A DNA stretch of 62,935 nt, filler included, from Craspedostauros australis (Eukaryota), in NCBI GenBank assembly GCA_030167865.1. It is 11 parts of 11 records of this genome, joined end to end, with 100 filler letters (N's around TTAATTAATTAA, not from the genome) between each part and the next. Parts side by side here need not be neighbours in the genome. Positions count along the whole stretch, not along the records: positions 43,669 to 44,890 come from JALAGF010002536.1; 10 more parts are not named here. One strand, 5' to 3'. Each line of letters starts with the position of its first letter. Within the stretch, counting starts at the first letter, position 1. Shown in pieces: positions 20,940 to 62,621 of the stretch. The notes beneath the pieces are model-generated. The model worked only from the letters and a program-made list of their open reading frames with translations, was not told where the DNA came from and did no database searches. The position numbers and the translations under genes are program-made.

Positions 20940-21135
20940 TATTCGTTGTTGTCTTGCTCCACTTATTTTAGTGGTACTAGCTTCTTTCCTTGTTCTCTGT
21001 TGCTTTGTTTTGGTGAGAAAGTATTGGCGATCACCGTCGTGATCCTTGAGTTGTGTTGGTGTGTTTCTGTATTGTTGTGTTATTGGTTCTTATTGTCTTT
21101 GCATTTTGTTTGCTTCTGCTCCTTTTTAATGTTTT

Positions 21136-23770
21136 CTACTCCTGTCGCGTGGCTCCTTGGCCTTCGGATGTGATTGGATCTGTGTCCATGGGGTCTTCCA
21201 TCTCATGGTCTCCTTGACTGCCCTTGTCCTCGTCCTCGTCATCGCTGTCAGTCTCGCTTGATCTGTCACCACTGTCCTCATCTTCTCCCAACCTCTGGGC
21301 CTTCATCTGGTCACTCTTGTCAGTCTCATGCTCGTCTTCCTCTGGGATGCTGTTACTTGGGTTGTCTGGGTCGAAGTCTGTTTTGGCTGCCGGGTCTGCT
21401 GCGAATTGCTGTGGCCTGGCTGACTTGTGTTTCGCAGTGTTTCTGATTGTGGCCCCAAGATGGGCGGTCTGCTGGGCCACTGATGCTGTTGCGAAAGCTG
21501 CTACCATTCCGTTGTCTCCATTCTGTGTTCTTGGGTTGGATGTCATTTCAACCTCGAATTCCAGGAGCGGCACTGGTTTCATGTTGCCTTGTTCATCCAT
21601 GTTGCCTTCCCATCCAACATCCTCCACGGATAGCTCGATCATCTCTTCTTCATCGAGATCGAGAAAGTGAGCACCCCTCTTGCGCAAGTTGCCCCATCTC
21701 CAACTCCTCCTTGCTTCTGACCAATCTGATTTCCTAGTCCACTTCAGAGTATTTGTTTTGGGACCATGCCTCTGGAGTAAACTATCCTTGGCATTTGTGG
21801 TCCAGCTTTTTGCTGCAGAAAAATGGTAGTTTGGAAATCAGTTCCCGCGCTTCCACCTGTCGTTTGGGATGGAAGACGAAAAAGGTGCGATTGCAGGTGG
21901 ACTTGTCTGTATCCACTGACACAAACAAAGTGTAGTCTGGGTCTTCGAAAGACCAAAGATTCAAGATGACCTTGCACAGAGTGAGTCTTCATATCAGCAC
22001 TTCCACATCCAACTGTATGATAGAGTACATGCCCTCTGTCACCATTTTCTTTTCAAATGCGGCCTGATGTGCTACCATCGAACTCAAGTTCGCGAGTTCC
22101 AAGGGTGGGTGATAGAACCGTTGGTCAAGAGCGTCCAGCATGAACCTCATCTGTTTTCCGAGGATGAGTACCGTGTCCGCGCGGTTGTTGAACATGTCGT
22201 TCATTGCGACATGGCAGGATCTGGGCTTTGACTCGCTGCACATGATGTGGGTGGCCCTTGGCCAGTTGCGGTAGCTATCTAATTCGGATCGTTGTCCTCT
22301 CTTCTTCACCAGTTGAATCTTATGGATGTGAAGTTGAACTATGCATTGGTTCTTCACAACCTCATGCTCATGGATTACTTCTGCCAAATCTTCCGTATTC
22401 ATGGTGCTGTGGCTGCCAAACAACCAGCCTGCTGCCACAATGTTGTGTTCCTGAATGCCAGACTTCCTGAAAGCCATCGCAGCTGTTACTAGTGTTCCAT
22501 CATCCTCAAAAGTGTCGAGGTCCTGTTTGTGGGCAACCCAAATGAATGTGTAGGTCATGAATCCTGTTCTTGCATAGAGACTCTCTACAAATTGCTTCAG
22601 CATCTCACAGCTGGTCCACGCAACGTCCGTGGCCATCCAGGGTCATAGCTTTTTGCTTTTCTGTCATGCCAGGACTTTCGCCTTGGAGTCAGTGCGGAAA
22701 ATGTATGCGCGTAACGCATTCAATCCTGCGATGACTTGCACCAACAGAGTATCATTGCCCTCCCTTGACATTGGCAGACACACATCAAAGAAGCTCTTGT
22801 GAATGTTGCTGAGGACATCATTGATGCTCACCAGTTCTCAAGCTTGTGGGTTCTTCCTTGGGTACGCCGTTACTTTGTTTTTTGGCTTGTATGACTTCTT
22901 TTTGGATGTGGGGTTTGGAGAGTTGGCCTGTGGAACGTCTTCATCTTCGTATTGTCGAGATGGATGCCCTTGACCTCCATGAATACCATCCTTGCTTCAA
23001 TCCACATGGCTGTCACATGTGTGGATAGGATCTGTCCAAATTCCACATCAAAGAGGAGAAGATGTTGGATGTTGCCAACAGTTGCACCATGATTTGCACC
23101 ATCAGCAGGTTGGATTCTGCAGTTAGTTTGTTGTTGTATGCATCGCTGAACAGCTGCTTCCACTGTTTGCAGGATGCCCCGTCTGCCAGATCGTCCCTCA
23201 TCTCCTTTACGAAGGCAATGGGCTCGTCAAATGCGCCCTCTTCCCCAGATGCAGCTTGGAAAGGTTCCAAGCCCCATGTCATCAGATTCCTCTTGCGGAG
23301 GATGTCACCCCAACTTCTCTCATGCTGATGACTCCAAGTCCAATGGTTCTCGTTTTCAGTGGGTTGCTTTTTTGTCGTCTTGTTGCCTGGAGAGTCGCTT
23401 GCCACCTCGGCCTCCTTGTCCTGGACATCCTTGCGCCATGGTCGGCATCGATCGAGCGCTCTGGTTGACTTTGCCAGAGCTGTTTTGTGCGCCTGTGCAC
23501 ACCATTGTCAAAGATTTTGTTCTAGTACTGATTCTACAGGTTCTACATGAGAATTTTTGTGCTGGTCCTACGTACGTCATCAACTGTGGAAGAGCCATGG
23601 GACATTCTTTAGTATGCAAAATTTAGCATTATTTCACACTAAGCTTAGTGTGTTAATACAAAGTCCTGCGCAACCTGCTTTGCTTCCATTGGACAGGGGA
23701 TGCTGAGGTCATCTGCTGAGCTGTTGGCATGGTGCGGAAAGAGCCTGGTGGCAGTGGTGTTGTTTTCCAT
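21136..23770 (-). pseudogene. LINE ORF1 (gag-like position), disrupted
   Basis: Collinear ORF fragments upstream of ORF2 (AAGWLFGSHSTMN, LFVSVD) with an acidic low-complexity C-terminus. The start is tentative. Confidence 0.65.
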
Positions 23771-27689: not shown

Positions 27690-29336
27690 GGCGACACCGC
27701 GGTCGCTTGCCATCCATCGCGTTTGCAGCGCGGCGTCATTCTCGTTACGTAGGCTGAACATTGTGCGTAGCAACAACGGCTTCGAATGGGACACGCCCCG
27801 AATGGCTTTGCTCGTACTCTTTTCTCCAGTTTTGGTTCCCAGGTGATACTTACTCTCTACACGCTCATATCATACACACCGGTGTACTCCCAGGGAGCAC
27901 ATCGCCTGTATGGTGTGGCCATCCACGATACGGCATGCATCATCTCAAACATTAAATCATTTTAGCTTCTGTGTCACATTACCACAACAACGACGGCAAC
28001 AGTAACACAACAGTTAGCATTTCATTCGAGGCCTATCGCATTTCACATGTGCAACCCGTTCCAATGCAGAAACGGCAACTGCCTCCCATGCTCATGTTGA
28101 CGCTGAGGTTGCCGAACCCAAACTGCTGCTGATGTCATCTCCCGAAAATGTCAACACAGATGACGTCCTACTCGCTCCACTTGCGTAGTTTTCTATGTTT
28201 GATGGAAAGCTAGGACGATAACATGTGTTCGTCGGAAACCTTCGGGAGTTGCGGTAGTATATATTCAATTTGTAACGACAACGCCCAATCTCAACAAGTG
28301 AACACGTGGTCAGCTGTGACGTCGCGAAGCGATTATTTGTTGCGCATCAACAAAGAGTCGAGCAAGTCCAAAGGGAGAGTTTAGTCACGCGCTTTCTTGT
28401 CTTTCGATGGGGCACTAGTAACTGCATTGGATAAATGTCATGACAACTCGGGAGTGCACAAGAGTCCCAAGGGATTGGTCATGGCTGTGGCGAATCCGCA
28501 CAACGACATGAAAAAAACGACCACATAAGTAACACATGCACAATTCGCATTCTTCTTGGGTCCTCAATCAACGACGGATATTTTTGGTCCTGGGTGTGTT
28601 GTTGGTCGTTGTTCGTTGTTTGTTCACCGCGGTAGCAATTGTCACGCCGTTCACTAATTCCGGTTGGGCTTTTCCATCTCTCGCATTGGCACCGCGGGAG
28701 AAACACGCGTCTCACTCGCTCTGGTCGCAATGGTCATGCGCCCCGCCGGTGTGGGAGCGAGAAGTTTGCGCCTCCTCCCTCTTTGCCATACATGTTCTTG
28801 GTACCGTCGTATTATCCGGCAACGCAAACAGATGGCACCCACCGACGGCAGCAGCAGCAACAGTAACGACAACAACAACAAGCTTCTCCCCGCTCAACAC
28901 ATAGCGCAGCCTTCGTGGTCAACGAGGTACCCATCGGCCGTGCCCCTGCCTCCCTCACCATCCTTGATGCCATTCGTCCAACAAAATTTGAAAGTTCCGT
29001 CGCTGCTGACCATCATTGCTCATCAACGAGCTCATCGACGAGTGTCAAATCCCCACATCGACTCCACAGCCCACAGTCATCGCAGAGCAGGCCAGAGCGC
29101 TGCACCTAACCAATACTCTGCTGTCTTGCCCACCAATACACACCTGGCAGTCACAGCATCGAAGAGTCCCCATCGCTCGGCTCCAAATACAAGTAGAGTA
29201 GAGTAGAGTAGAGTCATCTGCATTGCCACCAACATCAGAAGTGCATAAGCAGCAGTAGTTGCAGCAGCCACCAACAACACCACCACCACCAACAACAACA
29301 ACACCCAGAGTGCTTGACGAGACGACCTGGATAGCC

Positions 29337-31010
29337 ATGGGGCAACACACAACTGGCCAGTATGTCGCCCTTGCGGTGGCGCTGACGACCAGCAGTCTGC
29401 TGTCGATCGTCTGCTCGATCCTGATCATCATGCAAATCAAGAAGGACCTCAAGAAGGTGTACCATCGCATCCTGCTCATGATCTGTCTGGGAGATCTGGT
29501 GATGAGTATATCCAATCTATTCCACCCGTACCTTCTGGACTCCGAGAGAAGTCCCGCTCCGTACGCTGTTGGGAACGCGGCCTCGTGCTCTGCCATGGGC
29601 TTCTTCCTCTACGGTTCGTTCATCTTCCTCTCGATCCACAGCTCCCTCCTCTCCATCAACTTCCTTCTGCAGATCCGTTTCAAGTGGACGGAGGAAAAGA
29701 TCAAGAAACGGGCGGAGATCATATTCCATATCATCGCCACGACGGTTGGTTTCGGAATTCCACTCGCTGCAATCGCGACGCAGGGGATATCGGCATCGGA
29801 TCAGATTGGACTTTGCGTGATGATCGCCTACCCGCTCGGTTGCACAACAGATGACGACGTAGAATGCGAGCGCGGAGAGATTACGGAGACGTATGTGGCA
29901 CCCATGCAATCCTACACGACCTACTTCTTCGGACTGCTGGGCTTCATCTGCACCTTTATCCTTTACCGCACGGTCCGCAGCATTACCCTTCAGAGCGGAC
30001 GTCATGCATTCGGTGGCGAGGCAGCGACGCCGGACAACGCGCAGCAGAAACGGCTGCGGCTGGTGTCGAGACAATGCGTCATGTACGCTCTGTAAGTTCC
30101 ATCGCTGATTGAATCTTGCTTGGGTTGCCACGAGTCAGGCCCTGTTGTTTGTGCTGGAGACGCCGTCGTACATTGCATTGTGCTGCCTGGCGTGGTGCAC
30201 GCAACAGTCCAGACTGCAGCCTTCAATTAGGCAGGAATCTACTCCCACAGAAATTCGCGCTGTCCACAACTCGGCTGGACTCAACTCAACTCACACCGAT
30301 ACCTTCGTCACATCCACATCAACACTTGCCTCTTCCAACTGCATCGAATTGAATCGAATGGAATGGAATGAACACCAAACATCGCTGTCGTCACCAATTT
30401 CATCCGCAGCGCATACTTCAACACCATCCTTTGGCCGGGCGTGACTCAATTAGCATTGACCATGATTGACCTCGAAGAGCACGAAGGCGAATTCGGGATC
30501 TTTGCTCTGAAGTTCGTGGCATTCCTCTTCTACCCGCTGCAAGGATTCTTCAACTTCATCATCTTCATCATACCAAGGTATCAGCAATGGAGAAGGGCGC
30601 TGCCGGACGAGCCATGGATGTACGTTCTGCGGTGCTCTATATCCAGCCAGGATGTGCCCAAGGCTCGCGGTGTAGGGTCGCGGACAGGTTCCGCAAGATC
30701 CCAGTACACCTCAGAAACGTCGCATAGGTGCACCTTCGGCAGACCGGGATCAGGTAGATGTCAGGTATCTGAATCGTTCAGCGCTACAAGGCATGCGCCA
30801 CAGGCATCGTCACCGCCCGCAACAGAGCAAAAGGAATGCAACAGCCCTGAGAGGTCATCAGATGAAAACGAACCAGATATGAGCAAGGTGGTGAAGGAGG
30901 AGGAGAAATCCAACTGCGCAAGTCGGGACCACGAGGAAGCATCCAATTCAGGCAGCCCCACAGAATCACTTGACGACAGCCAGCAGAGCACCGATGATGT
31001 GCGCACATGA
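29337..31010 (+). CDS. GPCR-like 7TM receptor (cAMP-receptor/Git3-like), copy 1; exons ~29337-30091 and 30410-31010
   Basis: VYHRILLMICLGD, GNAASCSAMGF, YPLGC..C and TM7 FYPLQGFFNFIIF. A phase-2 intron at 30092-30409 (GTAAGT...CAG) restores MYAL-AYFNTILWP. The start is uncertain. Confidence 0.85.
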
Positions 31011-32973
31011 TGGTCCGGGATGGTCTCCATCCATGCAATGGCATCTACATGCTGATCATGACCAGTGATCGTGCTCGTCGCTTGCCCAGCTTCTCTGCCG
31101 CCGCCGCCATCATCGCTTCCTCCTCCAGTCGCCAGCTCCGGATCCGATGTCGATCGTAACAGCAATTGCATTCACGTGACATCAGATCGCGCTCGCCGTA
31201 CCAGCCGTGGTCCTCATTCCCGATCGGCAAACTGTCCAGCTCCCTCATGCCTGAGCACAAACGTGATCCGATGTTGACGAAGCCAAGCTCCGCTCGGGGC
31301 TGAATCTGCAGGAGGCTGTCAACTCCAGCACATATCGATACGATATTCAGAGTATTCACGAGTGCAATCAATCAACTCCGCGCTCGGTGCTACCGCAGGG
31401 AGGCTCCTTTGGTATCACAGCAGCAGCCTTTCGAGCATTGCTGAGCCGTATGCGAGATCGACGATCAAGGATGGGCTCAAGACACGTGACGGCCAAGCAA
31501 GCACCACATTTGCATCCATCGGCGTGCACTCGACACGGCTACGGCCAACCAAGTACCGCGTTTGCATCCATTGGTCCGCAACACACAGATAGACCATGTG
31601 GTACTGCGAAAAGGAGAAACGATATGGCAGCTCTGCAGTAGGAGCACGCTCTGCCACCTGTGCGTGTCGACCCTTTGGCGATCCCATTATGCCAATACTC
31701 GTACGGCCGTGGAAATCATGCTTTGCGCTGACGACGTGTCCTGCATGCGGAGAGAGCGCTGACACTTGGGATGCTGTGGAGCGAAGGCCTCGGACCGCCA
31801 TGCTCCAGCCAACTCCAAATGCAAGAAGAAGGACTGCTCTACGTCTTATGCTGGGACTCTAGACTGGGACTCATGCCGTTGCCTCGCACTTGTGCTATGA
31901 ACTAATCTTTGCTCGGTCTAGAAAGACGACTACGGTTTCTTCCCACACATCATGTGGGAGCTATGTGGAATGTACTAAATAATCATAAATGACTTAGCTA
32001 TCTGAGACGTGCATGGTGAGTCACTATGCCATCTTGCTCGAAGTTGGTTCTTTTGGGGATCTTCAGCAAGCTGGAAAAGGCCACAAAGACGTGTTTTTCT
32101 CTGATGACACTTATTCTCTTCTCAACACAACACTCGAAGAACAAAACTGAAGATCTTGACATCTTCCAAGCAAAGCTGGTGACAATCGATGGGTCATGGT
32201 CGCAAGGAACCATATCAAAGCTGTTGAAGAGAATGATGCACTAAGTAGAAATTCATATGTAGTGTAAGTTGCATTCTTGTTCTTCGCAAACATGTAGTGC
32301 CTTAGTATGGGAAAATGTTTGTGCGCGGGAAAATGTTGCTCGCAAGTTGATCCCGATTACATCATGCTTCGTGTTGTTGTCGCTTAAACAATTGACTCCG
32401 TTGCGAAACGTGATCTGTCGAGATGGAGGCGAAAAACTTTTTTTCACCGAAGGGGACGGGAATTCCTGTCACGCCCAACGCGCTTTGGGTTGTTGCCTGT
32501 TTCTTGGTGCCTCCTGTGTGTGTTGGTGTGCTTGTTGCTTTCTCTTGTTCGCACGACAGCATCACAATGGACAGCACACAGGTTGTGGCTGCCACCAACG
32601 TGCTTCTCCTGCTTGCATCCACACACACACACACTTCACGGTCCGCCCCCCTTGGCGTTTGTGCTGCTGTTTGTTCAACAAACTGGAAGCTCCATCGCTG
32701 TCGATCATCTTTGCCCATCACATCCTCGCACTCTGGGCTGCATGACGGAGCAATTTCCAGGACTATACCGTACGAGCTGCTCTGTTGACTTGCCTGCACA
32801 CGCCTGGAACTCACAGCATCACAGAGTCCTGTTTCTCTGGCGTGGCTCGTAGGTGCTCGCGCCATCCTTCGCGCCAATCTTGGCCGTGATCATCAGCAAC
32901 AGAAGCCATAGAAACAGCAGGAGCCGCTGCTGTCAACACCCACACCCACAGAGCAATCGACGAGACGACCTGG

Positions 32974-34724
32974 ATGGTCACGAAACTACATACAACTGGC
33001 CAGTATGTCGCCCTTGCGGCGGCGCTGGCGACCAGCAGTCTGATGTCGATCATCTGCTCGATCCTGATCATCATCCAGGTCAAGAAGGACCTCAAGAAGG
33101 TGTACCATCGCATCCTGCTCATGATCTGTCTGGGAGATCTGGCGATGAGCATGTCCAACATAATCCACCCGTACCTCCTCGACTCCGAGAGGACCACCGC
33201 TCCCTACGCAATTGGGAATACGGCGTCGTGCTCCGTTATGGGTTTCTTCCTCTACGGTCCATTCATCTTCCTCTCGATCCACAGCTCCTTCCTCTCTATC
33301 AGTTTCCTCCTGCAAATCCGCTTCAAGTGGACGGAGGACCAGGTCAGGAAATGGGCCGAGACGACATTCCATATATTCGCCACAACGGTCGGTCTCGGCA
33401 TTCCAATCGCAGCAATTGCGACGCAGGGGATGACAACCTCGGAGCAGATCGGGCTTTGCTTGATGATCGCCTACCCGCACGGTTGCATCATAGATGACGA
33501 CATTGAATGCGAGCGTGGAGAGATCACGGAGACGTATGTGGCGCCCATACAATCCTACACGACCTACTTCTTCGGATTGCTGGGCTTTACCTGCACCTTC
33601 ATCCTTTACCGCACAGTCCGCAGCATCACTCTTCAGAGCGAACGTCATACATTCGGCGGCGACGAATCTGCGCTGGACGATAGCAAGAAGAAACGGCTGC
33701 GGCTGGTGTCGAGACAATGCGTTATGTACGCTCTGTAAGTTCCATGGCTGATTGAATCGGATCGGATCCGGTGGTTGCGCTGGAGGTGCTGTCACGTACG
33801 CATCGCATTGCTCTGCACTTCACTGTCTTGCTTTCTATTGCATTACGCTGCGCCCGTGGTATGCGTGCCATTGTGAAGGTTGTTACATTCTGCAGCACAG
33901 TCGAAGACGATGGCGTTTGTTGGAACAATAGGACAGCAACGCAAAGAGCACGAACTTTACCCTGTTCACCATCCAGCTTACCCCAAGCCAACTCAATTCA
34001 ACTCACACTGATGTCTCTTGCCACATCCACATTTGTCTTCTCCATGGAATGGGATGGGTTTGACGTGGATTGGAATGACAATTCCTGTACCACCGATGCT
34101 GGTATCGCCAACGCCATCTGCAGCGCATATTTCAACACCATCCTTTGGCCGGGCGTGACTCAACTCATTTTGACATTCATTGACTTCGACGAGCACAAAG
34201 GTGAATTTGGGATCTTTGCGCTGAAGTTCGTGGCATTCCTCTTCTACCCACTGCAAGGATTCTTCAACTTCATCATCTTCATCATGCCGAGGTACCAGCA
34301 ATGGAGAAGAGCGCTGCCTGATGAACCATGGATGTACGTGCTGCGGTGCTCCATATCCAGCCGGGATGTGCCCAAGGCTCGGGGTGTAGGGTCGCGGATA
34401 GGCTCCATCAGATCCCAGTACACTTCTGAAGTTTCGCAGAAGTTTACCTACAGCAGACCTGTATCTGGTAGATCACATGCATCTGAACCGTTCAGAGTTA
34501 CAAGGCACGCTGCGCAAGCATTGTCGCCATCTGCAGCAAAGCACAAAGAATGCAGCAGTCCCAACAGACCATCACGTGAAACTGAACCCGGTGCGAGCAC
34601 TGCAGAGGAGGAGGAGAAGGAATCCAACACCACTGATCGAGAGCATGAAGAGACATCCGATTCAGTCAGCCCGACAGAGGCACTTGACGATAGCCAACAG
34701 AGCACCAATGAAACTCGCACATGA
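32974..34724 (+). CDS. GPCR-like 7TM receptor, copy 2 (tandem paralog); exons 32974-33734 and 34124-34724
   Basis: Highly similar to copy 1, with the intron at the same position (33735-34123). Confidence 0.85.
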
Positions 34725-36369
34725 TGGTCCTGGCATGGTCTCCATCCATTGAGTTCAACGGTATGTACGTCGTGGTCATGACACAAATCATGCTCCTGAT
34801 GCGCCCAACTCATTCGCCTCCTCCACTCGCCGGCTCTGACTTTGACGGCGACAAAGATCAGGGCTGCATTTGCGTCGCATCTGATCACGCTCTCCGTACC
34901 GGTCATGATCCTCACTTCTGATTGGGAGATCATTTTGTGCCGAACCATCTGAGTACAAACGCAAGATCCGATGTCAATGGGAGCAAGTCGACGTCGAAGT
35001 TGAACCTGTTGGGAGTTCGCGACTGCAGCGCTTGCCGACAAGACATCATGAGTGTTCACGAACGCAATCAATTGAATGTAGCCTCGTCGCTGTCGCAGAA
35101 TCCCGCGATGAACCAAATGGCTCAGAGAGGCTCGCTCTGATACCACAAAAGCATGTGGCATTGTGAGAAGAAGAAACAATACGATGGCGCATCCTGACAC
35201 ACAAGTCATGCAGAATGCTCCGCTACACCCTTCAGCACCTCCGTTGTCGACGTGCAGGACACTGTCCGGAGACAGGAGAGGCGACATTCTTTCACCTCGA
35301 CTGGACCCTTGCCGAATCTGCATCTGCTGCTGCGCGACAAGATGATTCGAACCAGGGAACTGCGGCTTCGTGTGGGACGGTGGGAGAAGCAAGGAGAGGA
35401 CGACCTTGCTCGGGAGTGGACGAGTCGGCCAGATTCTGGAAGGGTTGTCACTTGGAGAGAGACTGTTGAGACGACTACCACAGCACAGGCTCGGTCCTGT
35501 TGGGTTTCTTCGAATTGAAAAGGAAGTTGTCGATGGCATCCATGCTGTCAGCAACCGCGCATGAGGGCAGGCTGGACAACAAGCTCAATGCCTGCGATGT
35601 TTGGCGAAAACTATACCTCTCTGGAACAGGCAAGATGTTGACCTGGCGACGCTGTGATTCATGAAGAGGATGTGCACGACCTCTAGCCTCGAGCAGAGTC
35701 TCCATCGGGTTCATGACATGACCAAAGATAGAGCTTTTCTCCACACAAGCATAGCAGAGCAACAGCGCTTCGACATGCACGCAGCCGTTCCCATTAGTCC
35801 TCTGTTCATGGCTCGTACCTCAGCCCGATAGACGTTGCTGTTACGACATTTCCCTTTGTCCGCATTCGCACACACGTGGCTCTCGGGCTGGATAATAGAT
35901 TAATTCTCCACACAAACAACCACGAGGGGCGTGGCCATGCTGGGAATGGAGCCTTTCGGCGTTCAGTGTTGCCGATGTGGGGAGATTGCGTGGTGGTCGT
36001 GTTTCTCGGTGCCGGTTGCTCGTTCTTGTTTTTGCGTTCTGTGGCGGGAATTCGTGAATGCCTATGTGGCAACAACCACAGAGAGAGTAGAGGCCTATCG
36101 CATTTCACATTCACACCCCTGTGCTCATGTCACATGTGGCACTCACGTTCGGATTTCACATTGGTACTCGTGACTAGTTCGTGATCTACTCAGAAAGACG
36201 ACCAACATGACTGAATCGGCTTCTCTTCTGTAGAATAGAGCTCTAGTTTAGACTGCTCTGATATGAATGNNNNNNNNNNNNNNNNNNNNNNNNNNNNNNN
36301 NNNNNNNNNNNNNTTAATTAATTAANNNNNNNNNNNNNNNNNNNNNNNNNNNNNNNNNNNNNNNNNNNN

Positions 36370-36795
36370 GAGATCTGACGGTGCATGCTTGTCAGGGATG
36401 GATACATATGGGGTATATGGAGACAATGAGATGCGCAGGTGGTCGAAACGAGATGGTTATGGGCATCATCTTGGATGGCAAAGTGATGGCACCATGGTCC
36501 CATCCAGAGTTTTGCGGCACACACAATCCCACGTTATCAACAAAAATGCTGTTAAATTTGAAGTTAATTTTAATTTAAGTTCAATATTCCTATACATCGC
36601 AAGTTNNNNNNNNNNNNNNNNNNNNNNNNNNNNNNNNNNNNNNNNNNNNNNNNNNGATATAGCATCATAAGCACTTTTTGGGATGGATTGCATTTTTGCT
36701 CTAGACTGGACTACGCAACACGACTAATCCCACGTTGGAGGGCAAAAAACTCTACAACTAGTGCTATCGCTTTGCCGAGTGAGTGAGGTGGAAGG
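36370..36795. mobile_element. Terminus of a TA-targeting DNA transposon, inserted into a transposase gene
   Basis: Near-identical to 61992-62417. Both copies end ...GAGTGAGGTGGAAGG followed by TA, after which the flanks diverge. Confidence 0.8.
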
Positions 36796-37283
36796 TAATG
36801 TGCCTTGCTGATTGGGAGATGAGGGTGTTTTGGTTCCCAGGTGCGAAAATCGGTGCCATCGACGGTCACTGCGAAGACTGGCGCGTTGGGGTGATCCAGC
36901 GACCTCTTCTCCCAGACGATCTTCTTTTCGCGGAGTGCTGCGATCCGCTTGATCCACTTCCAAATCGCCTTTCCTCGTGCGTATCTCTCGCAAACACCGA
37001 AGCGGGATACGATGACACCCGAGTTTTTTGGGTAAGTCCACAGGAAGAAGTGGGCAATCATGAAGAATTGGAATCCTTTCATTGACTGTTCTTGTGCGTC
37101 GATGGCTGCCGCACGGATGGTTGTGTGACACAAGTCATACCAAATCTCTGCGACGTCCAGTGGGTTGGAACCATAATGCTGACGGAACAGAACCGTCAGG
37201 GCTTCAATGGCCTTCCACTTCGTGTCCTGGATCCCCACCAACTCGAGCCCAAGCGTGAGGACGGTGTTTGCGCTGAGGAACAT
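36796..37283 (-). pseudogene. PIF/Harbinger-like (DDE_Tnp_4-type) transposase, N-terminal half, interrupted by an insertion
   Basis: FRQHYGS, FLWTYPKN, TVDGTDF. Homologous to 41005-41760 and 43669-44246; the homology stops at the TA at 36796. Confidence 0.85.
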
Positions 37284-37414
37284 GATGCGTAGAATAGATG
37301 AGATGATGTTGACTATCGTGATTGATCCTGTGAATTGGTGGAGTTGTTGTTCTTATGATTGGTGCATTGACTGTTGCTGCCATGTTTGTTTCCGTCGTAG
37401 TCGTAGTCGCAATC

Positions 37415-37449
<35 letters not shown>

Positions 37450-37837
37450 CCGTGCTGCGACGTTGATGTTCGTCTTGTTGTTGCTGCTGCTGATAGCGGT
37501 GATGATGATGTTGGCTCTGAATTAGCGAGCGTGTTAGGCATGCGCCGGCCGCTGGCAACACATCAGTCCAAAATAACGGAAAGACGGGAAATAGCAGCGT
37601 GCAAGCATTCAACTACATGTATGCACTATGACAGGGATAGAGCAAGGTAGTTTGGCGACGTGTAGCAAACACGGGAGATGCCATTCTGCGACGGTTGCTC
37701 GTTGGTTTCGATGAACCCATTGTCGCCAAGTGGTAGGCATGACACAGATCGTCGTGATTGCGCCCGTTGTTGCTGTTGCCCATGTTACTGTCGAGGAACG
37801 CACGATGCCATCACAAATCAACCAATTACAGAGCAGG

Positions 37838-38275
37838 ATGGTGATGAAAGGCAAACCAATTTCCGTCATTGGCGGCAAGTACAAGGGTCTGATTGGGTGG
37901 GTGAACGTGGACAAGAAGCCAACCAAGACTCGCCTTCCAGTCGTCTTGCAGCTCCACGATGGCGAGCAGAAGGCGACTGCCATCAACAAGGAGAACGTCA
38001 AGCGCCGCAAGATCCCAGCAAACAGAGCCGAGGCAATCATGCAACAACAGCCTGACATCAACAAAATGGTTAAGAAGCTCGCGATGGCGTTGTGCGACTG
38101 CTGCAATCTCGGTGTTGTGGAGGGGAACAGCCGCATGACTCTCCGTAGCGGGGATCTTCTAAGCTTCAATACAATTCTCCTGCAGAAGATCCACGAGGCC
38201 ACAGATATTCGCAAGGAGCTTGGCGATGACGCAAACATCCGTGTGGTTGATGTGAGCGAAGTCAAGATGGGGTGA
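37838..38275 (+). CDS. Transposon-associated small protein with an N-terminal KOW-like motif
   Basis: MVMKGKPISVIGGKYKGLIGWVNVDKK; a homolog starts at 44808 next to the other transposase. An upstream ATG at 37805 is also possible. Confidence 0.7.
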   Translation: MVMKGKPISVIGGKYKGLIGWVNVDKKPTKTRLPVVLQLHDGEQKATAINKENVKRRKIPANRAEAIMQQQPDINKMVKKLAMALCDCCNLGVVEGNSRMTLRSGDLLSFNTILLQKIHEATDIRKELGDDANIRVVDVSEVKMG

Positions 38276-38452
38276 CGGGCAACAGCAAAGCGCATCAAAC
38301 ACCAACCCCACCATGTCAATAGGAGACTAAAATAGGCAACAGACCAAGCACCATTTCTCTTCACTTGTTCACTAGTTATTATTGTTACGATTGTGCTGAC
38401 TGCTCATGGCAGTTGCTCCTTCCTCTTGCTGTGCTACTCGTCTGAGCTGCCC

Positions 38453-39805
38453 TCATGCGCCAGCGCCATTGCCATCCTCTTCGTCAAACAACTCGAGGTA
38501 CTTTGCCATTGCGGTCGGTTTGGGCACTGAATTCAAGCGGCCGCCTTGCAAAGCCACCTTCCAATACACAGAAGCTCCGTAGGTCACACGCCCAAGCTCT
38601 GTTGTGCCTTCACTGGCACGCTGGAGAGACAAGTGGGTCACGATGGTGTTGTCAATGAGCCGTGGGAACACGGTGTGATCGAACCGGACGTTGATCGGAA
38701 AAATCACAAGCCAGTACGAGAACTGACGTTCTTGGGAGGCCTGGATGCTTGCGATCGTAGAACCCAGGGCGTTTTTTGCCGTTCCGCAATCTTCATCCCC
38801 AGCGTAGTAGCGCTCTGCGTCGCGATGCCAGCCGGAGGTGCTTGGGCCGCGAATCATGATTGCACGCTCGGAGAGGCTGGGGGCGGATACAGGGATTGTT
38901 GCCGTCCACTCCTTGATGTCGTGGAGGGAAGTCGGCACCCGAATGTGATAACCCGAGAAGTTCGCATTCTTCACAGCAACGTCATTGACGTGGTCAATGA
39001 GAAAGGGACCGTTGCGTTCGGGGAACCTGGTATTAACCGGGATTTTGTACGGGTTCTCTTTTGTTCCGTCTTGGGCATTGGCAAAAAGAGAAGCGAGCGC
39101 ATCGTTTCCAACATTGGCCTCCCCAAGTCCACGGGCAGACATGCCAGGGGAAGCAAAGGAAGGGGCCGGCGAAGCGAACGATGGCGGTCCGAAGGCGCGC
39201 TGTGGCGTCTCCACCCGGTTTGGCAAGAGCTGATCCTTGCTTGGGGTGGACATCCCGTCGAGATTCATGTGTACAGTGTTGCGTTGGAGTGGTGGTTTGT
39301 GAATGGCAGCTGTTGATGGCGGAGCTCGGACGGAGGTTTTGTTCACAGAAGAAGGAGCAACGGGCGGTTGTAGTGAGATGCCATTAACCGCGTCAACAAG
39401 ATCATCAACACTGTCACCGACATCATCCGTGTGCGACCCATCTGAACTGCCCAAGCCATCTGAGTGATCCGAGGCATCCGAGGCATCCGAACTGTCCGAG
39501 TCCTTCTCCTTTGTCTTCTTCTCATGCTCCTTGAGCTCGGCGAGAGTCCCTTTGCCGACTTCGATTTGCGATTTGCGAAGGAGCGACATGTAGCTCGTGA
39601 TCGTCCGCTTCTTGAGCCCGCTGAACAACCGACTGCTCTGCACGCGACGATTGGATCCTGGTGCACCAAACAGAACGTTGTCGTCGTCACAAACTTCTCT
39701 TGAGAATCTAACTTGCTGTCGACTCTTGCCAATCTTCTCAACGGCTCGAGCGATGCTTTCGGCCAGACACTTACGATCGTTCTTGCTGAAGCTGGTGTCT
39801 TGCAT
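38453..39805 (-). CDS. Hypothetical 450-aa protein, probably transposon-associated
   Basis: Intact long ORF. A globular-looking N-terminus and C-terminus (GTKENPYKIPVNTRFPERNGPF) are separated by an S/D/P-rich linker. Confidence 0.7.
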   Translation of the reverse strand: MQDTSFSKNDRKCLAESIARAVEKIGKSRQQVRFSREVCDDDNVLFGAPGSNRRVQSSRLFSGLKKRTITSYMSLLRKSQIEVGKGTLAELKEHEKKTKEKDSDSSDASDASDHSDGLGSSDGSHTDDVGDSVDDLVDAVNGISLQPPVAPSSVNKTSVRAPPSTAAIHKPPLQRNTVHMNLDGMSTPSKDQLLPNRVETPQRAFGPPSFASPAPSFASPGMSARGLGEANVGNDALASLFANAQDGTKENPYKIPVNTRFPERNGPFLIDHVNDVAVKNANFSGYHIRVPTSLHDIKEWTATIPVSAPSLSERAIMIRGPSTSGWHRDAERYYAGDEDCGTAKNALGSTIASIQASQERQFSYWLVIFPINVRFDHTVFPRLIDNTIVTHLSLQRASEGTTELGRVTYGASVYWKVALQGGRLNSVPKPTAMAKYLELFDEEDGNGAGA

Positions 39806-40433
39806 TATCGGTGGAGATTATGAGATGATGTTGTTTGGAAGCGCTGCTGTTGAGGAGTTGGCCGTGTTGTTACTTTCCGCAGAGGTTGTGAACGAATCAT
39901 CGCGTGGTTCCAGCTTCACATCATACGAGTGCTCGCGACAGCTTGCGATTCCGTCGGACAAAAACCATCAGCGAGGGAACCAATGCTGCATTTCAGACCG
40001 GATGCCCGCCAAGTCTGAACGGAAGAAGGACCATGAAATTGGGAGGATTGTTCACCAGACATTCCAACCAAATCAGAGCTATTGTGGTTTCTGTACAATG
40101 ATCTCGGCATGTATGTGCAAAACTATTCAGCAGGTTGCTGCACATGACCAAGACTGCCGTGGCAAGAAACACATGAGCCAGCTTTCTGTTGTGAGATTGT
40201 GAACGGGGAGGGAAAGATGGAGCATTGGGTCCAGCTTTGTGGCTGTGTGATGGTGTGAACAAACACACGACTGCTTCAAATTGTATTGTTCTAAGCGTCA
40301 CTCTAGAGCACCTGCGTGCGCGCCATCATTGGCGCCAGTACTGATACTGCTATGGGCAAGGAACCAATGGAGACACTATTAAATTGCAATGCATTTGAAA
40401 TCATAATCGTCACATGAAGGGCAAGCTGGAAAG

Positions 40434-40904
40434 ATGGCATCCAACACGCCGAAATTCACCTGGCGCTGCAATCCAGCTGGCGCAATGATGAAGAACGACT
40501 TCGACATTGGCGGCATCTTCCACGAGGTGGATGTGTCTGTGGACGAGGCGTGGGCGCACTACCGCGTCCTGGAGCAATTCAAGGTTCCAGGGATGACGCA
40601 AGCTGTGTTCGCGAGATACTTCAAGCAATTCGAAAAACGCGTGAGCAAGAATCGTGGCCGCTCTGCCACTGAATTGCGTGCGCTTGAACATGACCGAACG
40701 TTGCATCCTCAGCAACGACGCAACATCCGTGGGAAGCCCGTCATGTACCTGTCTCCCGCGAAGCCCCTTGCTCGTCCAAGATATCAAGCAATCGAAGCAT
40801 TTGGAAATGACACCAGCCGAACTCAAGGCTAGCAGACCAGAGTATGCTGCGTTCGATTTGGTGCAGTTCAAGCAGCACATCTACCAAGAAGCCAAGGCGC
40901 AGAA
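40434..40904 (+). pseudogene. Transposon-associated protein with an internal repeat; +1 frameshift near 40768, truncated by a gap
   Basis: WRCNPAGAMMKND is echoed by YLSPAKP/LLVQD, followed by RPEYAAFDLVQFKQHIYQE in the shifted frame. Confidence 0.6.
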
Positions 40905-41004
40905 NNNNNNNNNNNNNNNNNNNNNNNNNNNNNNNNNNNNNNNNNNNNTTAATTAATTAANNNNNNNNNNNNNNNNNNNNNNNNNNNNNNNNNNNNNNNN
41001 NNNN

Positions 41005-41760
41005 TGTCACACAGAGATTCCTGAGGCCAACCTCAACACAAAAGATAAAACGATGAAGGGCTTTACATTCTTCATGATTGCGCACTACTTTCTGTGGCTT
41101 TATCCCAAAAACTCCGGCGTCATTGCGTCTCGGTTCTGTGTGTGTGAGCGATACGCACGAGGAGAACACATCTGGCGATGGGTGAAAAAAATTGCCGCGC
41201 TTCGGACGAAAAAGATCGTGTGGGATTCGTCTCTGGACCACCCCGACTCCTCTGTTTTCGCCATCACGGTTGATGGCACTGATTTCCGCACTTGGGAAAA
41301 AAAGCACCCGACTCTGCCAATTGATCGCGCGCAGTACTCACACAAGTTTAACCACGGCGCGGTCAAGTACGAGATCGCGCTTTCTGTCTTCTCTTCCAAA
41401 TGCGTGTGGATCAGTGGGCCATTTCCTGGTGGCACCCACGACCGGGCTATTTTCCGTCATGGTCTCATGGACAAACTGGCAACAGGGAAACTTGCCATTG
41501 CCGATCGTGGATACCAAACCAGCGTGGCGGCTCAACGCGAACAACTGTCACTTCCAAGCGGTACCGACTCGTGGCGGCTCGCCAAGTTCAAAAGTCGGGC
41601 ACGATGTCGTCACGAAAGCTTCAACGGGCGGATCAAGAAATTCAAGTCGATGGACGACACTTTTCGCCATGGGTACGAGTGTCACATGCATGCTTTCGAA
41701 GCAGTGTGTGTCATCATACAGTACCAAATGGACAACGGATCAGAACTCTTTGCAGTGTGA
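41005..41760 (+). CDS. PIF/Harbinger-like DDE transposase (5' end in gap)
   Basis: TVDGTDF, YSHKF, GPFPGGTHD, IADRGY, RARCRHESFNGRIK and FRH; the catalytic D-D-E appears intact. Confidence 0.9.
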   Translation, partial: CHTEIPEANLNTKDKTMKGFTFFMIAHYFLWLYPKNSGVIASRFCVCERYARGEHIWRWVKKIAALRTKKIVWDSSLDHPDSSVFAITVDGTDFRTWEKKHPTLPIDRAQYSHKFNHGAVKYEIALSVFSSKCVWISGPFPGGTHDRAIFRHGLMDKLATGKLAIADRGYQTSVAAQREQLSLPSGTDSWRLAKFKSRARCRHESFNGRIKKFKSMDDTFRHGYECHMHAFEAVCVIIQYQMDNGSELFAV

Positions 41761-42000
41761 CCACGAACTCTTTCTACAGTCTGTTTCACATGTATACAGT
41801 AGTCACCACATTAAAACGTAGACAACAACACTCCAACTCCACACTCGTCTCTGTTGTGATCTGTCCAGAGCAGGGCAGAGCTGAGGCGAGCCACCATTTC
41901 GTGGTCTGTTTGTGTGACCAAGTGCACTTGATTAGTTCGATCACTTCCCGACCTTGTCTTCTTGGGTCACGAGTGACAAAATTGTGCGATTTATTTATCC

Positions 42001-42160
42001 GTCATTAGATATATTTAGACGTCATTTGATTTATTTAGACGTCATTAGATATATTTAGACGTCACTCGATTTAAATAGCCCTCATTCGAATTAAATAGAC
42101 GTCATTTGATTTATTTAGACGTCATTAGAAATAAATAGTCGTCATTCGACTTATTTAGAT
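42001..42160 (+). repeat. 8 x 20-bp tandem array (consensus GTCATTAGATWTATTTAGAC), probably transposon subterminal repeats
   Basis: Exact 20-bp period, 240 bp downstream of the transposase stop. Confidence 0.85.
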
Positions 42161-43320
42161 TTAGGCGCTGATTGTCATCGGTATTGACGGGACTCGGTCA
42201 TTTGGGCCAGCGGCATCGATGCCTCGTTGTATTTGTCCGAAGTAGGNNNNNNNNNNNNNCTCACTAAGTTCTTCGAAAGGAGGTTCGTTCTTCGCCAATC
42301 GCGGAATGTCAATTGCGGCTTTCTTGTGTCTGGTGACAAAATCGGTGTTGGATGTCAAATTAGTCGTACTAGTCGAGTTTCCGTCTCCGCTGCTTTTTGC
42401 CGGGTGTCCCTGAGGAATCCACTTAGCCGTAAGTGGACTCCTCAGTCCCGAAAAATTCCTTACGGATATCGGAGATACAGAGTTAGGAGGTCTATTTCAA
42501 ATGATTGGTCGACTCGCTCACCGGGACCATATTCATCACAGATTCCGACTTGTATTGTACGTATGGATCGTGAGATAGTCGATGTAGTCTAATATTCCAA
42601 GATACGTTCGTGCAACGTCCGCAAGGTCGCCAAGGTCCGTGTTATTGGCTGGCGACTTTTCTCTCGCTGTCTGTGTCCTTGTGTTGTGTCTGTTGCGGAG
42701 GTTTGTGATCCTTGTGCGCGGAATCCTTCCCTTCCTTCGAATGGTGATGTGTTCGTGTCCGTGAGTTTGTGTCTGTGTCGTCCACGCTTCCTCTGCTGGT
42801 GTCAGTGTCGGTGTTCGTACTTTTGGTGGTGCGCCGCCTTCCACGTCCAACGTACATGGGTACAGTATCGTGGGGGCAGAAGGAGCAATTCCACGAAGTA
42901 TTCGATGCGGATCGTTCCTACTTTTGACTGCGGCGATGTTGTCCTGCGTGGCGCGCGAAAACAAACACGCCATGGCATCACGAGCCTTCGCTTGACTTCC
43001 GTCTCTGTTGGGTTCACAGACTTTCCGCGAGAGCGCTCTTCCCCACTTCACCGCATTCGTGCAGCCACTCAAACCAGAGCATAGTACTTTACTTTAGATC
43101 GTACCAACAGACTGAAGGGATAGCGGTAAGCCCAACAAGGAGGCACAATCAGAGCAGAGCATCGCGCCATCGTCCGAATGTAACTCCCGTTCCTCTCTTG
43201 CTCTCTTACGATCTATTATATCAGCAGTCGTCGACTCGTACCACTACTAATAGTCGTATCCGCATTAGTGCTGTGCTGTGATACGCTCTGCACCAGAGTA
43301 CGAGCAGAGACACAGCAAGA

Positions 43321-43568
43321 TGCCCGCGTCGATGACGGAAGACATGCTGACGGCGACGGATCATGACCTCATGGACGCCGCAATGAAGCCGCGCTCTGCT
43401 TCCGGCGGCGGCGCAGATCCCAACGCAAAGGAAGCGGACTCCGTCAGGACGAAGTCATCCGAAGCCAAAGATAGCGATGGTTCCGACGGTGCTACGAACA
43501 GCAGTGGTAACAACGATGCCTCAAAGCAGCGGCAAGGCGACGAGGAGCAACAGGAAAGCAAGGACTCC
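43321..43568 (+). CDS. N-terminal fragment of a low-complexity protein, truncated by a gap
   Basis: Open frame MPASMTEDML...ESKDS running into Ns; no recognisable domain. Confidence 0.4.
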
Positions 43569-43668
43569 NNNNNNNNNNNNNNNNNNNNNNNNNNNNNNNN
43601 NNNNNNNNNNNNTTAATTAATTAANNNNNNNNNNNNNNNNNNNNNNNNNNNNNNNNNNNNNNNNNNNN

Positions 43669-44246
43669 CCAGGAAATGGCCCACTGATCCACACGCATTT
43701 GGAAGAGAAGACAGAAAGCGCGATCTCGTACTTGACCGCGCCGTGGTTAAACTTGTGTGAGTACTGCGCGCGATCAATTGGCAGAGTCGGGTGCTTTTTT
43801 TCCCAAGTGCGGAAATCAGTGCCATCAACCGTGATGGCGAAAACAGAGGAGTCGGGGTGGTCCAGAGACGAATCCCACACGATCTTTTTCGTCCGAAGCG
43901 CGGCAATTTTTTTCACCCATCGCCAGATGTGTTCTCCTCGTGCGTATCGCTCACACACACAGAACCGAGACGCAATGACGCCGGAGTTTTTGGGATAAAG
44001 CCACAGAAAGTAGTGCGCAATCATGAAGAATGTAAAGCCCTTCATCGTTTTATCTTTTGTGTTGAGGTTGGCCTCAGGAATCTCTGTGTGACACAGATCA
44101 AACCAGATCTCGGCGATGTCGAGAGGACTGGAACCGTAGTGCTGACGAAAAAGCGCAGCAACAGTGTCGTTCGATTGCCGAGCTGATGGGTGAACCCCAA
44201 CCAACTGGAGGCCTGTCATCAGCACATCATGAGGACGCAGGAACAT
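43669..44246 (-). CDS. PIF/Harbinger-like transposase, N-terminal part (3' end in gap)
   Basis: MFLRPHDVLM...TVDGTDF...GPFP. 43669-44093 is the reverse complement of 41005-41429. Confidence 0.88.
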
Positions 44247-44263
44247 GGTANGGCTGATGTTGT

Positions 44264-44298
<35 letters not shown>

Positions 44299-44807
44299 TG
44301 ATTGATGATGAGATGCTGATGCTGATGTTGTGATTGATGATGCAGTTGTTGTTNTTCCTTCATGCAACGTGTCTGTCACAAGAAGGGACGATCTCGTCCG
44401 CGAAGAGACCAATCCTGCAGCAACAAGCACTTCACCAAACACGGCACAACGACTTGGCGACACAACAGTCATGGATCGAGGCCCAGTTAGCGAATAGTGA
44501 TGGCATGTGCTCAGAACCAAGAAGTATTTTCACGCAAAATGAGAGTGCTTTGTTTGTCGATGTGAATGATGGTCGTGATTTGGCGACTGGACCCAGACAC
44601 GCGAAAATGACGAAACAGTTTCGTGTTGCGTTGTCGTGAAGCACCACGGCAGAAAGGAGAACACAGCGAGCGCTGGTACTGGCGTTTCCGATGTTCGCTG
44701 ATTGATCAACCAACACATCCAACGACAAGCCCACAACATCACTCATCAGATCACAACACCAACACCAACACCACAACAACAACAGCAGCATCAATTGCAG
44801 CATCACC

Positions 44808-44890
44808 ATGGGCACGAAGGGAAAGCTCATCGCCATCACTGGAGGAAAGTACAAGGGTCACATTGGCTGGGTGAATGTGGACAAGAAGCC
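44808..44890 (+). CDS. KOW-motif transposon-associated protein, second copy (truncated by a gap)
   Basis: MGTKGKLIAITGGKYKGHIGWVNVDKK, homologous to the 37838 ORF. Confidence 0.7.
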
Positions 44891-45143
44891 NNNNNNNNNN
44901 NNNNNNNNNNNNNNNNNNNNNNNNNNNNNNNNNNTTAATTAATTAANNNNNNNNNNNNNNNNNNNNNNNNNNNNNNNNNNNNNNNNNNNNTTCGCCGAAA
45001 GTTCGCGGAGACCACATGCGCAAGACTCCAATCAGTCCGGTCCCGTTCACAACCACGTCAAAACCCCAATGAGTTGGACGGGGAGACCGAGTCCATGTGT
45101 CCCGACGTTAATTAGACGTTATAGACGTTAAGAGTAGTATTGC

Positions 45144-45276
45144 TACTTTCATCGAAGTGGTGTTACTTTCATCGAAGTGACATTACTTTCATCGAAGCGT
45201 GACTACTTTCATCGAACCTGTGTTACTTTCATCGAATGGTTGCGACCATCATTGGCGCGTGCGTACTTTCGTCGAA
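45144..45276 (+). repeat. 20-bp-period array with invariant core TACTTTCATCGAA
   Basis: Cores at 45144, 45164, 45184, 45204 and 45224, plus a variant at 45264; the 7-bp linkers vary. Confidence 0.9.
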
Positions 45277-45699
45277 ACGCCACCAACCAATTTTGTGCGA
45301 AGCTGTGAGTCGTGTTATTCTGTTGGTTCACGAGGAAATCCACGAACCAGCCCTTTCGAAGTCCCGAATTCTGCCAGCCAGTTGATTTTCACAGCACTCA
45401 GTTGCACAAAACGTGTGAGCGACATCTCGTGGACACAGAGATCCCACATCGACCTCCAAGGCCAGAATATAAATGTAGACCACCTGTATCACACAGGAAA
45501 AGTACAAGCCACATCATACGTGTTTGTCATACTGGTAACATTAACCAGTACATATGAACATACATCATCTAATGAAAGGAATGAATGCCTACTATAGTTG
45601 TAGATATGTGCATCATTCACCTGTTTGCTCCAATTCTGTGCGTTGTGGATCGTATTCTGACCAAGTCTTCATTGAAAAGTATAACAATATTCCATCTAA

Positions 45700-61727: not shown

Positions 61728-62417
61728 ATCTACGAAACAGATTGAAGCGCCGAGAGCATCGGGCAAGAGAACGGGCGTACACCAAGAGGATCGGAGTAGC
61801 CAAGTAATGAACTAGCAAACAGACGACTATCAACCAACACCATCTTCCACGATCGTAGGTTACCGTGAGCGGAACTTGCCAACAATGGTTGTGAGCGGGA
61901 GATATGATCGGATGAAGCAGCTGCCTTCGGACCGTCCTTCATTTTCAAAAATGTTGGATTTCAGAAATGGGCTGCCAATGTGCATTGAACGGAGATCTGA
62001 CGGTGCATGCTTGGCAGGGATGGATACATATGGGGTGTATGGAGACAATGAGATGCGCAGGTGGCCGAAACGAGACGGTTATGGGCATCATCTTGGATGG
62101 CAAAGTGATGGCACCATGGTCCCATCCAGAATTTTGCGCCACACACAATCCCACGTTGACAACAAAAATGATGTTAAATTTGAAGTCAATTTAAATTTAA
62201 GTTCAATATTCTTATTCGCAGGCAACGATTTGTTCCCATGGTACACTTATTTTTAATTGTGAATGATGTGGTGTTGCGATATAGCATCATAAGTGTTTAT
62301 TGGGATGGATTGCAATTTTGCTCTAGTCTGGACTACGCAACACGACTAATCCCACGTTGGAGGGCAAAAAACTCTACAACTAGTGCTATCGCTTTGCCGA
62401 GTGAGTGAGGTGGAAGG
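61728..62417. mobile_element. Second copy of the TA-targeting transposon terminus
   Basis: Matches 36370-36795; TA at 62418-62419. The left part is lost in a gap. Confidence 0.8.
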
Positions 62418-62621
62418 TAGGCAAAGTGTGCACGAGCGGCAGAGTCGTCCAAGACACCAAGCTGGGCAATAACAAAAAGCAAGACCACAATGCACGGAAT
62501 GTTCAGGTGAAGGAGGGCATATGAATAAATGTGCCCTTTCAGTCGCAAACCAACGAGTCGCGGGAGAGAGCGATATTTCTGGCCAGTTGGTTCGTCCTTC
62601 CGATACTGGAGGTGGTTGTAA

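Follow-up and report, generated by a model that had tools for sequence, protein, structure and literature searches.

A KOW-motif gene set head-to-head with a Harbinger-type transposase is a probable accessory gene of diatom transposons with four core genes

The window, a stretch of 62,935 nucleotides from Craspedostauros australis, consists of short contigs joined by N44-TTAATTAATTAA-N44 linkers and holds two copies of a divergent transposase/KOW gene pair, designated elements A and B (Table 1). The nearness of the two copies in the window may reflect contig concatenation and not physical linkage. The pair of element B fills one whole contig of 1222 bp (43669-44890), with the transposase ATG at 44246 on the minus strand and the ATG of the KOW ORF at 44808 on the plus strand; the corresponding ATGs of element A lie at 37283 (minus) and 37838 (plus). 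The ATG-to-ATG distances of 555 bp (A) and 562 bp (B), at which the first-pass annotation of this DNA had placed a divergent KOW-motif gene, were thus confirmed. The two transposases, which had been judged by eye to be roughly 60-65% identical, are 65.4% identical over 156 codons, and the intergenic DNA has otherwise diverged, as had been stated; the spacer cores of A and B are unrelated, with a local alignment score (22) inside the range of shuffled sequences (17.7 +/- 2.4, maximum 28, n=300). The motif GGKYKG[L/H]IGWVNVDKK is present in both KOW ORFs, whose starts are identical at 20 of 27 residues. Over these 27 codons, 2, 5, and 11 nucleotide changes were counted at codon positions 1, 2, and 3, respectively, giving a dN of 0.13 and a dS of 1.13 (Fisher p 2e-4).

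Table 1. Features of elements A and B in the window and transposon loci bounded by terminal inverted repeats (TIRs)
Feature	Position or size	Strand	Basis or remark
Element A transposase, first 157 codons, broken by another repeat	36811..37283	-	alignment to B
(CAACAG)n tract, transposase A leader, 5.8 copies	37415-37449	-	tandem repeat scan
Element A KOW protein, 145 aa, barrel (residues 3-58) and three helices	37838..38275	+	model
Element A accessory ORF450	38453..39805	-	homologues in 20 of the best 80 of 140 loci
Element A helical-repeat ORF ('HIYQE' family), divergent from ORF450	40434..40904	+	homologues in 26 of the best 80 of 140 loci
Element B transposase remainder with DDE triad, neighbouring contig	41005..41760	+	DDE_Tnp_4, E 2.4e-12
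Element B subterminal 20-bp tandem repeats, 8.6 copies, putative protein-binding sites	41987..42159	.	repeat scan
Element B right TIR, then TG	42390..42410	-	near-identical to L043/L045 TIR start
Element B transposase, initial 192 codons, up to the contig end	43669..44246	-	start fits MLLSPxDVL
Element B divergent intergenic region, putative bidirectional promoter with two CA-rich leaders	44247..44807	.	C+A gradient
(CAACAG)n tract, transposase B leader, 6.8 copies	44258-44298	-	tandem repeat scan
Element B KOW-barrel ORF, initial 27 codons, up to the contig end	44808..44890	+	motif, alignment to A
L027	10.2 kb		four genes and cargo
L040	4.9 kb		four genes
L069/L070	8.7 kb		without KOW
L043/L045			decayed element with TIR pair
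L029			transposase only, TIR pair

The remainder of element B was found on a neighbouring contig (41005-43568). Positions 41005-41429 are the exact reverse complement of 43669-44093 (100% over 425 bp); this contig thus overlaps that of the gene pair, and the joined transposase B would be ~302 aa. A GACGTCA-containing word similar to the subterminal repeats of element B also sits in the TIR of L043. In element A, the helical-repeat ORF has a frameshift near 40765 and is cut by the contig end. A separate repeat, present at 36370-36797 and 61992-62419 in ~95% identical copies, abuts and truncates transposase A. Elsewhere in the window, a 20-bp repeat array at a contig start (45143-45276) may belong to the subterminal part of another element, the fragmented ORFs at 15427-22636 (minus strand) resemble, by eye, a decayed non-LTR retrotransposon, and 29293-31062 and 32934-34782 hold a tandem pair of membrane-protein genes that are 78-86% identical. 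No Rfam match was found in 36300-45400.

The transposase of element B scored 47 bits against the DDE_Tnp_4 profile (cut-off 24.8). Its family consensus is a protein of ~300 aa that starts with MLLSPxDVL, and the triad D90, D167, and E204 is invariant in 61 sequences. The transposase is Harbinger-type, and by transposase and TIRs the element belongs to the PHIS superfamily. Named organisms with relatives are Fistulifera, Epithemia, and Attheya for the transposase and Ditylum for one KOW protein. No relative was found in the viral contigs searched, nor by sequence among solved structures with the transposase, helical-repeat, or ORF450 profiles. Three transposases of one 90% cluster (P0101, P0291, and P0292) lie on different scaffolds of Epithemia clementina, a distribution that suggests recent mobility.

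The occurrence of the KOW gene was assessed in the best 80 of 140 metagenome loci that encode transposase relatives (numbered with L), the set on which all counts out of 80 are based. The 145-aa KOW ORF of the window alone matched 16 of these best 80 loci at E<1e-3, and a KOW profile matched 20, a count that is partly circular because the profile grew from those loci. In 17 of the 20 KOW-bearing loci the gene lies head-to-head with the transposase, the other arrangements being those of L039, L040, and L031; the transposases of the KOW-bearing loci have a median pairwise identity near 46%. Forty of the best 80 loci carry no helper gene, and most of these do not reach far enough to include one. 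Of the 27 loci that extend 700 bp or more upstream of the transposase, 13 have KOW as the nearest upstream gene, 3 the helical-repeat gene, and 2 ORF450; the remaining 9 have none. At 50% identity the KOW profile gathered 843 representatives, 600 of them at E 1e-10; these clusters were counted from sequences alone, and not all need lie in transposons. The family has a median identity of 32% and ten nearly invariant positions. In P0121, P0122, and P0139, two or three tandem KOW barrels stand ahead of one helical domain, which makes the barrel a module. The KOW gene is not obligatory for the element; it is absent from the complete but distantly related element L069/L070, which has the other two helpers. 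A word-index search with the KOW ORF alone returned no relative among 30 candidates, and an Atlas search gave a weak lead only (0.75).

The first-pass annotation had drawn on the near-equal spacing of the two pairs and on the (CAACAG)n tract in both transposase leaders as evidence of selected linkage. Neither extends beyond elements A and B: in 16 other loci the transposase and KOW genes stand 189-423 bp apart, and the tract is absent from all 16 spacers. The tracts themselves do occur in both leaders, but they lie 132-166 bp upstream of the transposase ATG in A and 12-52 bp upstream in B, and are thus not at an equivalent place. Three or more copies of the unit are also found at window position 58185 and in L024, and of 9 other window ORFs checked, one of them with an approximate start, 8 follow a CA-rich leader (C+A 0.58-0.78); such leaders are common in this genome, and the (CAACAG)n tract is one variant of them. 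Moreover, since A and B are sister elements, traits common to both may simply be inherited. What stood of the claimed linkage is that the ORF is under selection and that the head-to-head arrangement recurs. Along the element B spacer, plus-strand C+A climbs from 0.17 to 0.88, and a shared bidirectional promoter would fit the strand-flipped CA-rich leaders of this copy; the pattern is weaker in element A, whose KOW leader has a C+A of 0.49. The word TCGCC, the top 5-mer of the spacers (12 of 17, z 3.2), was rejected, the best words of shuffled spacers reaching z values of 2.4-3.6.

An AlphaFold2 model of the KOW protein was built from 133 sequences (pLDDT 89; pTM 0.64, the orientation of barrel and helices being uncertain). 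It has a five-strand barrel (strands 4-10, 19-23, 32-38, 44-50, and 54-56, pLDDT above 90; residues 3-58), and three helices follow. The best structural match was NusG (Z 7.8, rmsd 2.1, 52 aligned), and other matches were Spt5 KOW6-7 (Z 7.3), RfaH, unrelated SH3 domains (Z 6.5), and the integrase of RSV (Z 5.8, rmsd 2.8, 51 aligned). The 50 listed fold matches are of KOW and SH3 types, with no Tudor entry by title among them, and Foldseek returned no match to the model at E 0.001. The KOW/SH3-type fold class is secure; the Z scores are middling and may reflect only a common fold. The barrel is basic, with a median net charge of +5 over the 133 sequences, and a Trp after the KOW motif is conserved in 97% of the sequences. 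In Pfam, the KOW ORF of element B reached E 8e-4 with KOW5_SPT5 and E 7e-3 with KOW, in each case below the curated cut-off (PF00467 and PF23290; best 16.5 against 22.3 bits and 19.2 against 27). Three of 20 family members matched Pfam KOW weakly, and none of 26 further members did so at E 0.05; among named profiles, uL24 (E 0.02) and Spt5 KOW5 come closest. The profile and fold search proposed in the first-pass annotation thus bore out a KOW/SH3 barrel by structure, whereas the Pfam KOW scores stayed under their cut-offs.

Homologues of the other two accessory genes of element A occur in 20 (ORF450) and 26 (helical-repeat) of the best 80 loci. ORF450 (450 aa) is predicted to comprise a helical N-domain, a low-complexity linker, and a C-domain with an alpha-crystallin/CS-like fold. 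The C-domain was modelled from 14 sequences as a beta-sandwich (pLDDT 71), and domains of the small-HSP or CS type fill the top 16 places of its fold search. These matches are modest (best Z 6.2 with rmsd 9.7 over 106 aligned residues; SGT1 CS, Z 5.3, rmsd 3.2, 80 aligned; Foldseek E 0.5 or worse), and the C-domain had no match in Pfam. With Z scores of 7.8 for the KOW protein (6.5 to SH3 domains) and at most 6.2 for ORF450, both resemblances may be only those of common folds. Weak Atlas leads (0.86-0.87) hinted at a capsid-like ORF450, but the fold search did not support this. The Myb/SANT profile of Pfam matched none of 18 helical-repeat proteins, 14 ORF450 N-domains, and 20 KOW proteins; this search was by sequence profile. 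The helical-repeat protein of L027 (459-1187, plus strand) has an added N-terminal SAP-like motif (E 0.011), which is consistent with DNA binding. A complex prediction for the L039 transposase with the helical-repeat protein, the ORF450 C-domain, and the KOW protein scored 0.01, in a run with alignments unused and the partner fold uncertain, and speaks neither for nor against such a complex.

Taken as whole elements, the core consists of four genes, encoding a DDE transposase of ~300 aa, a KOW plus helical protein of ~140 aa, an ORF450-type protein of ~400-450 aa, and a basic helical-repeat protein. All four are present in 6 of the best 80 loci and in element A of the window, and L027 and L040 hold them inside TIR pairs. 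Gene order in L064 equals that of element A; it is shuffled in other loci, with the divergent pairs mostly kept. Five independent elements are bounded by TIRs (Table 1). The TIRs begin with GG, and one such end lies in the window at 42410. The flanks of the five elements (CT|TG, CT|TG, CA|TG, CA|TG, and CT|CG) fit a C-W-G target; a perfect CTG repeat is present in two (L027 and L069), and the middle base differs in the other three; collapsed assemblies can mix flanks. It is very probable that the KOW ORF is a conserved accessory gene of diatom PIF/Harbinger-type (PHIS) cut-and-paste transposons with these four core genes and GG-starting TIRs.

Some loci carry further ORFs as cargo; enzymes were seen among them in a few loci only, a different one in each. 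The four-gene element L039 has a SET-domain ORF (2846-3481, plus strand; Pfam SET E 5e-5) between ORF450 and the helical-repeat gene, the only SET domain among 11 cargo ORFs scanned from 7 loci; none is present in the complete L040 or in the window elements as far as assembled. Endonuclease-III-like cargo was found in L075 (1190-1660, minus strand, E 5e-4), and the ORF at 2874-5063 (plus strand) of L069 is weakly endonuclease-III/HhH-GPD (glycosylase)-like; L069 and L075 are without a detected KOW gene. An ORF of L027 (3972-6203, minus strand) resembles endonuclease-III/HhH-GPD by eye only and has a SUMO-like stretch (E 0.1). A role of such cargo in DNA demethylation, or as a decoy, is possible. 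The C-half of a 363-aa cargo ORF of L042 (1783-2871, minus strand), which had no Pfam or PDB match, has an HxD...H...R pattern that we take to be like that of 2-oxoglutarate/Fe(II) dioxygenases.

The evolution of the pair was examined on a quick, midpoint-rooted tree of 54 rows, with 27 loci of broken or partial transposases excluded. Elements A and B are sisters (SH-aLRT 99), and a split with support 100 separates 46 rows, among which are all those that bear KOW, from 8 rows in which none was seen. The dN/dS comparison that the first-pass annotation had called for gave a divided answer. Selection on the KOW gene is purifying in A/B and in L005/L047, where dS is far above dN (p 1e-10), but in the subfamily of L026, L030, L033, and L036 its dN/dS of 0.7-1.2 comes near 1, whereas the transposase has 0.17 and the helical-repeat gene 0.27. 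Given the strong purifying selection in A/B (27 codons), fast evolution of the KOW gene is not general. The KOW frame is open in the L026 subfamily, for which a neutral survival of 2-4% is expected under point mutation. Changes between L026 and L033 do not avoid the columns conserved in the family (26/39 against 58/91 kept, p 0.84), so that relaxed selection fits as well as an arms race. Pairwise identities of transposase and KOW protein gave a Spearman correlation of 0.50 over 99 non-independent pairs. In L050, the KOW fragment is near that of L010 (dS 0.32) and the transposase near that of L011 (dS 0.35); these fragments are short, and module swapping or a chimeric assembly is possible.

Standard accounts describe Harbinger transposons as systems of two genes in which the partner of the transposase is Myb-like. 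In the available text of PMC4482050, PIF/Harbinger elements have two ORFs, for a DDE transposase and a Myb/SANT protein, and a TWA target site duplication (TSD). The diatom element shares with them a DDE_Tnp_4 transposase, short G-starting TIRs, separate accessory ORFs, and a core of 4-5 kb (L040, 4.9 kb), but it has three accessory genes, among them KOW-barrel and alpha-crystallin-like folds, no detected Myb/SANT profile, and C-W-G in place of TWA flanks; it probably works like a PIF/Harbinger element, but on a strict definition by two ORFs and a TWA TSD it falls outside PIF/Harbinger. The NuwaI group of PHIS in animals has a CWG TSD, GGG-starting TIRs, and a Myb/SANT second ORF, as described in the same text (PMC4482050). 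Compared with this description, the diatom element has flanks of CWG type and GG/GGG-starting TIRs but differs in its hosts, its four core genes, the lack of a detected Myb/SANT profile, and a perfect TSD in 2 of 5 elements. In the supplements of that source, as far as available, Thalassiosira and Phaeodactylum are named among the genomes screened and nowhere else.

The available part of PMC12730594 describes HarbingerS of oomycetes, with a SET domain, and PHISTA of rust fungi, with TET/JBP and a third protein without Myb/SANT. These share with the diatom element a multi-gene PHIS structure, chromatin-modifying cargo, and the lack of a Myb partner. In that account the SET gene of HarbingerS is a core gene, whereas among the diatom cargo ORFs scanned SET occurs in L039 only; the cargo of the diatom loci differs between elements, being SET in L039 and an endonuclease-III-like protein in L075, and the core is made up of three helpers that are not enzymes. 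The available text makes no mention of KOW; it gives TE-borne SET and TET enzymes and VANDAL anti-silencing as precedents (PMC12730594). Of the Harbinger_TP families, which are likewise diatom Harbinger-like elements, only Harbinger4_TP of Thalassiosira pseudonana was compared; it differs in size (~3.7 kb) and in its TTA/TAA/TGA-type flanks, as given in the available supplement of PMC12730594. The KOW protein shares a KOW-like glycine motif and a five-strand SH3-type barrel with uL24 and the KOW domains of NusG, Spt5, and RfaH. Unlike NusG/Spt5, it is a stand-alone, transposon-encoded protein of 140 aa with a helical C-half, the nearly invariant Trp after the motif, and no NGN-sized N-terminal region, its barrel starting at residue 3-4. 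In literature searches outside Repbase, the Kojima review, and Kapitonov and Jurka 2004, we found no account of a four-gene diatom lineage, and neither a KOW barrel nor an alpha-crystallin-like fold was found as a Harbinger partner; an earlier partial description is possible.

In the reading that we prefer, to which we assign a probability of about 0.45 as a whole, the accessory KOW gene and the transposase would be co-expressed from the short divergent spacer acting as a bidirectional promoter, and the helical-repeat protein would stand in for the Myb-like partner and read the subterminal repeats. The KOW protein would be a non-catalytic adaptor whose basic barrel touches nucleic acid or the host transcription/chromatin machinery and whose helices bind a partner; its likeliest job would be to keep up element expression against host silencing. 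The alpha-crystallin-like protein may serve as a scaffold, joined in some elements by SET or glycosylase-like cargo. That the KOW protein is such a non-catalytic factor keeping the element expressed, by anti-silencing or by expression support, has in our view slightly less than an even chance; it is favoured because the KOW gene is optional, its fast evolution is episodic, the cargo includes chromatin enzymes, and a partner is alpha-crystallin-like, all of these grounds being indirect. Against it weigh the middling fold scores and the KOW scores under the Pfam cut-offs, the fit of relaxed selection to the L026/L033 changes, the purifying selection in A/B, and the scarcity of cargo enzymes, two of the loci that carry them (L069 and L075) having no detected KOW gene. 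The available text of PMC5339849 offers an analogy, in function only: the Harbinger-derived HDP1/HDP2 act with the alpha-crystallin proteins IDM2/IDM3 of the Arabidopsis IDM complex in anti-silencing. The IDM proteins are host-encoded, whereas the alpha-crystallin-like protein here is carried on the element. The VANC anti-silencing proteins of VANDAL are a further analogy in function. A more elaborate form of the preferred reading is unlikely, namely that the element encodes its own anti-silencing complex, with the helical-repeat protein as sequence-specific reader, the alpha-crystallin-like protein as scaffold, a KOW protein that mimics Spt5/NusG and engages RNA polymerase II or nascent RNA, and swappable enzymes (SET, glycosylase, or dioxygenase).

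Retroviral integrases bind DNA with an SH3-like C-terminal domain. The KOW protein could in the same manner be a subunit of the transpososome that binds DNA at the element ends or target and is co-expressed for stoichiometry, and the tight head-to-head coupling (17/20), the basic barrel with RSV integrase among its fold matches, the shortness of the transposase, and the correlated identities of the two proteins all point that way. We nevertheless hold this to be somewhat unlikely, in that a complete element keeps the other two helpers without KOW, the gene is free in position in L031, L039, and L040, and the divergence of KOW in the L026 subfamily runs at three to four times the rate of the transposase, which would be unusual for a core subunit. 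The confinement of KOW-bearing rows to one clade, the dN/dS near 1 in that same subfamily, and the proximity to uL24 and Spt5 KOW5 profiles would also suit a captured host KOW fragment (of Spt5, KIN17, or ribosomal type), a passenger of one subclade whose ORF is kept open by weak or host-directed selection and has no role for the element. This is quite unlikely, since the gene is retained across hundreds of clusters that have a median identity of 32% but keep ten positions nearly unchanged, it has a conserved helical half of its own, and dS is far above dN in two pairs. As copy B has only 27 KOW codons, A and B are sisters, and the window is a concatenation of short contigs, the pairing might even be an accident of two copies or of assembly, the ORF being no element gene; this is hardly credible, and the head-to-head pair in 17 independent metagenome contigs, together with two TIR-bounded elements, already refutes it.

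For annotation, the lineage matters in that it assigns to transposons three large families of 'hypothetical protein' from ocean metagenomes and the genomes of diatoms. Should the helpers counter silencing, as in the preferred reading, they would offer a testable system of conflict between diatom transposons and their hosts, and possible tools for targeted de-silencing. A self-encoded anti-silencing complex, if true, would be a selfish and independently arisen counterpart of the plant IDM complex.
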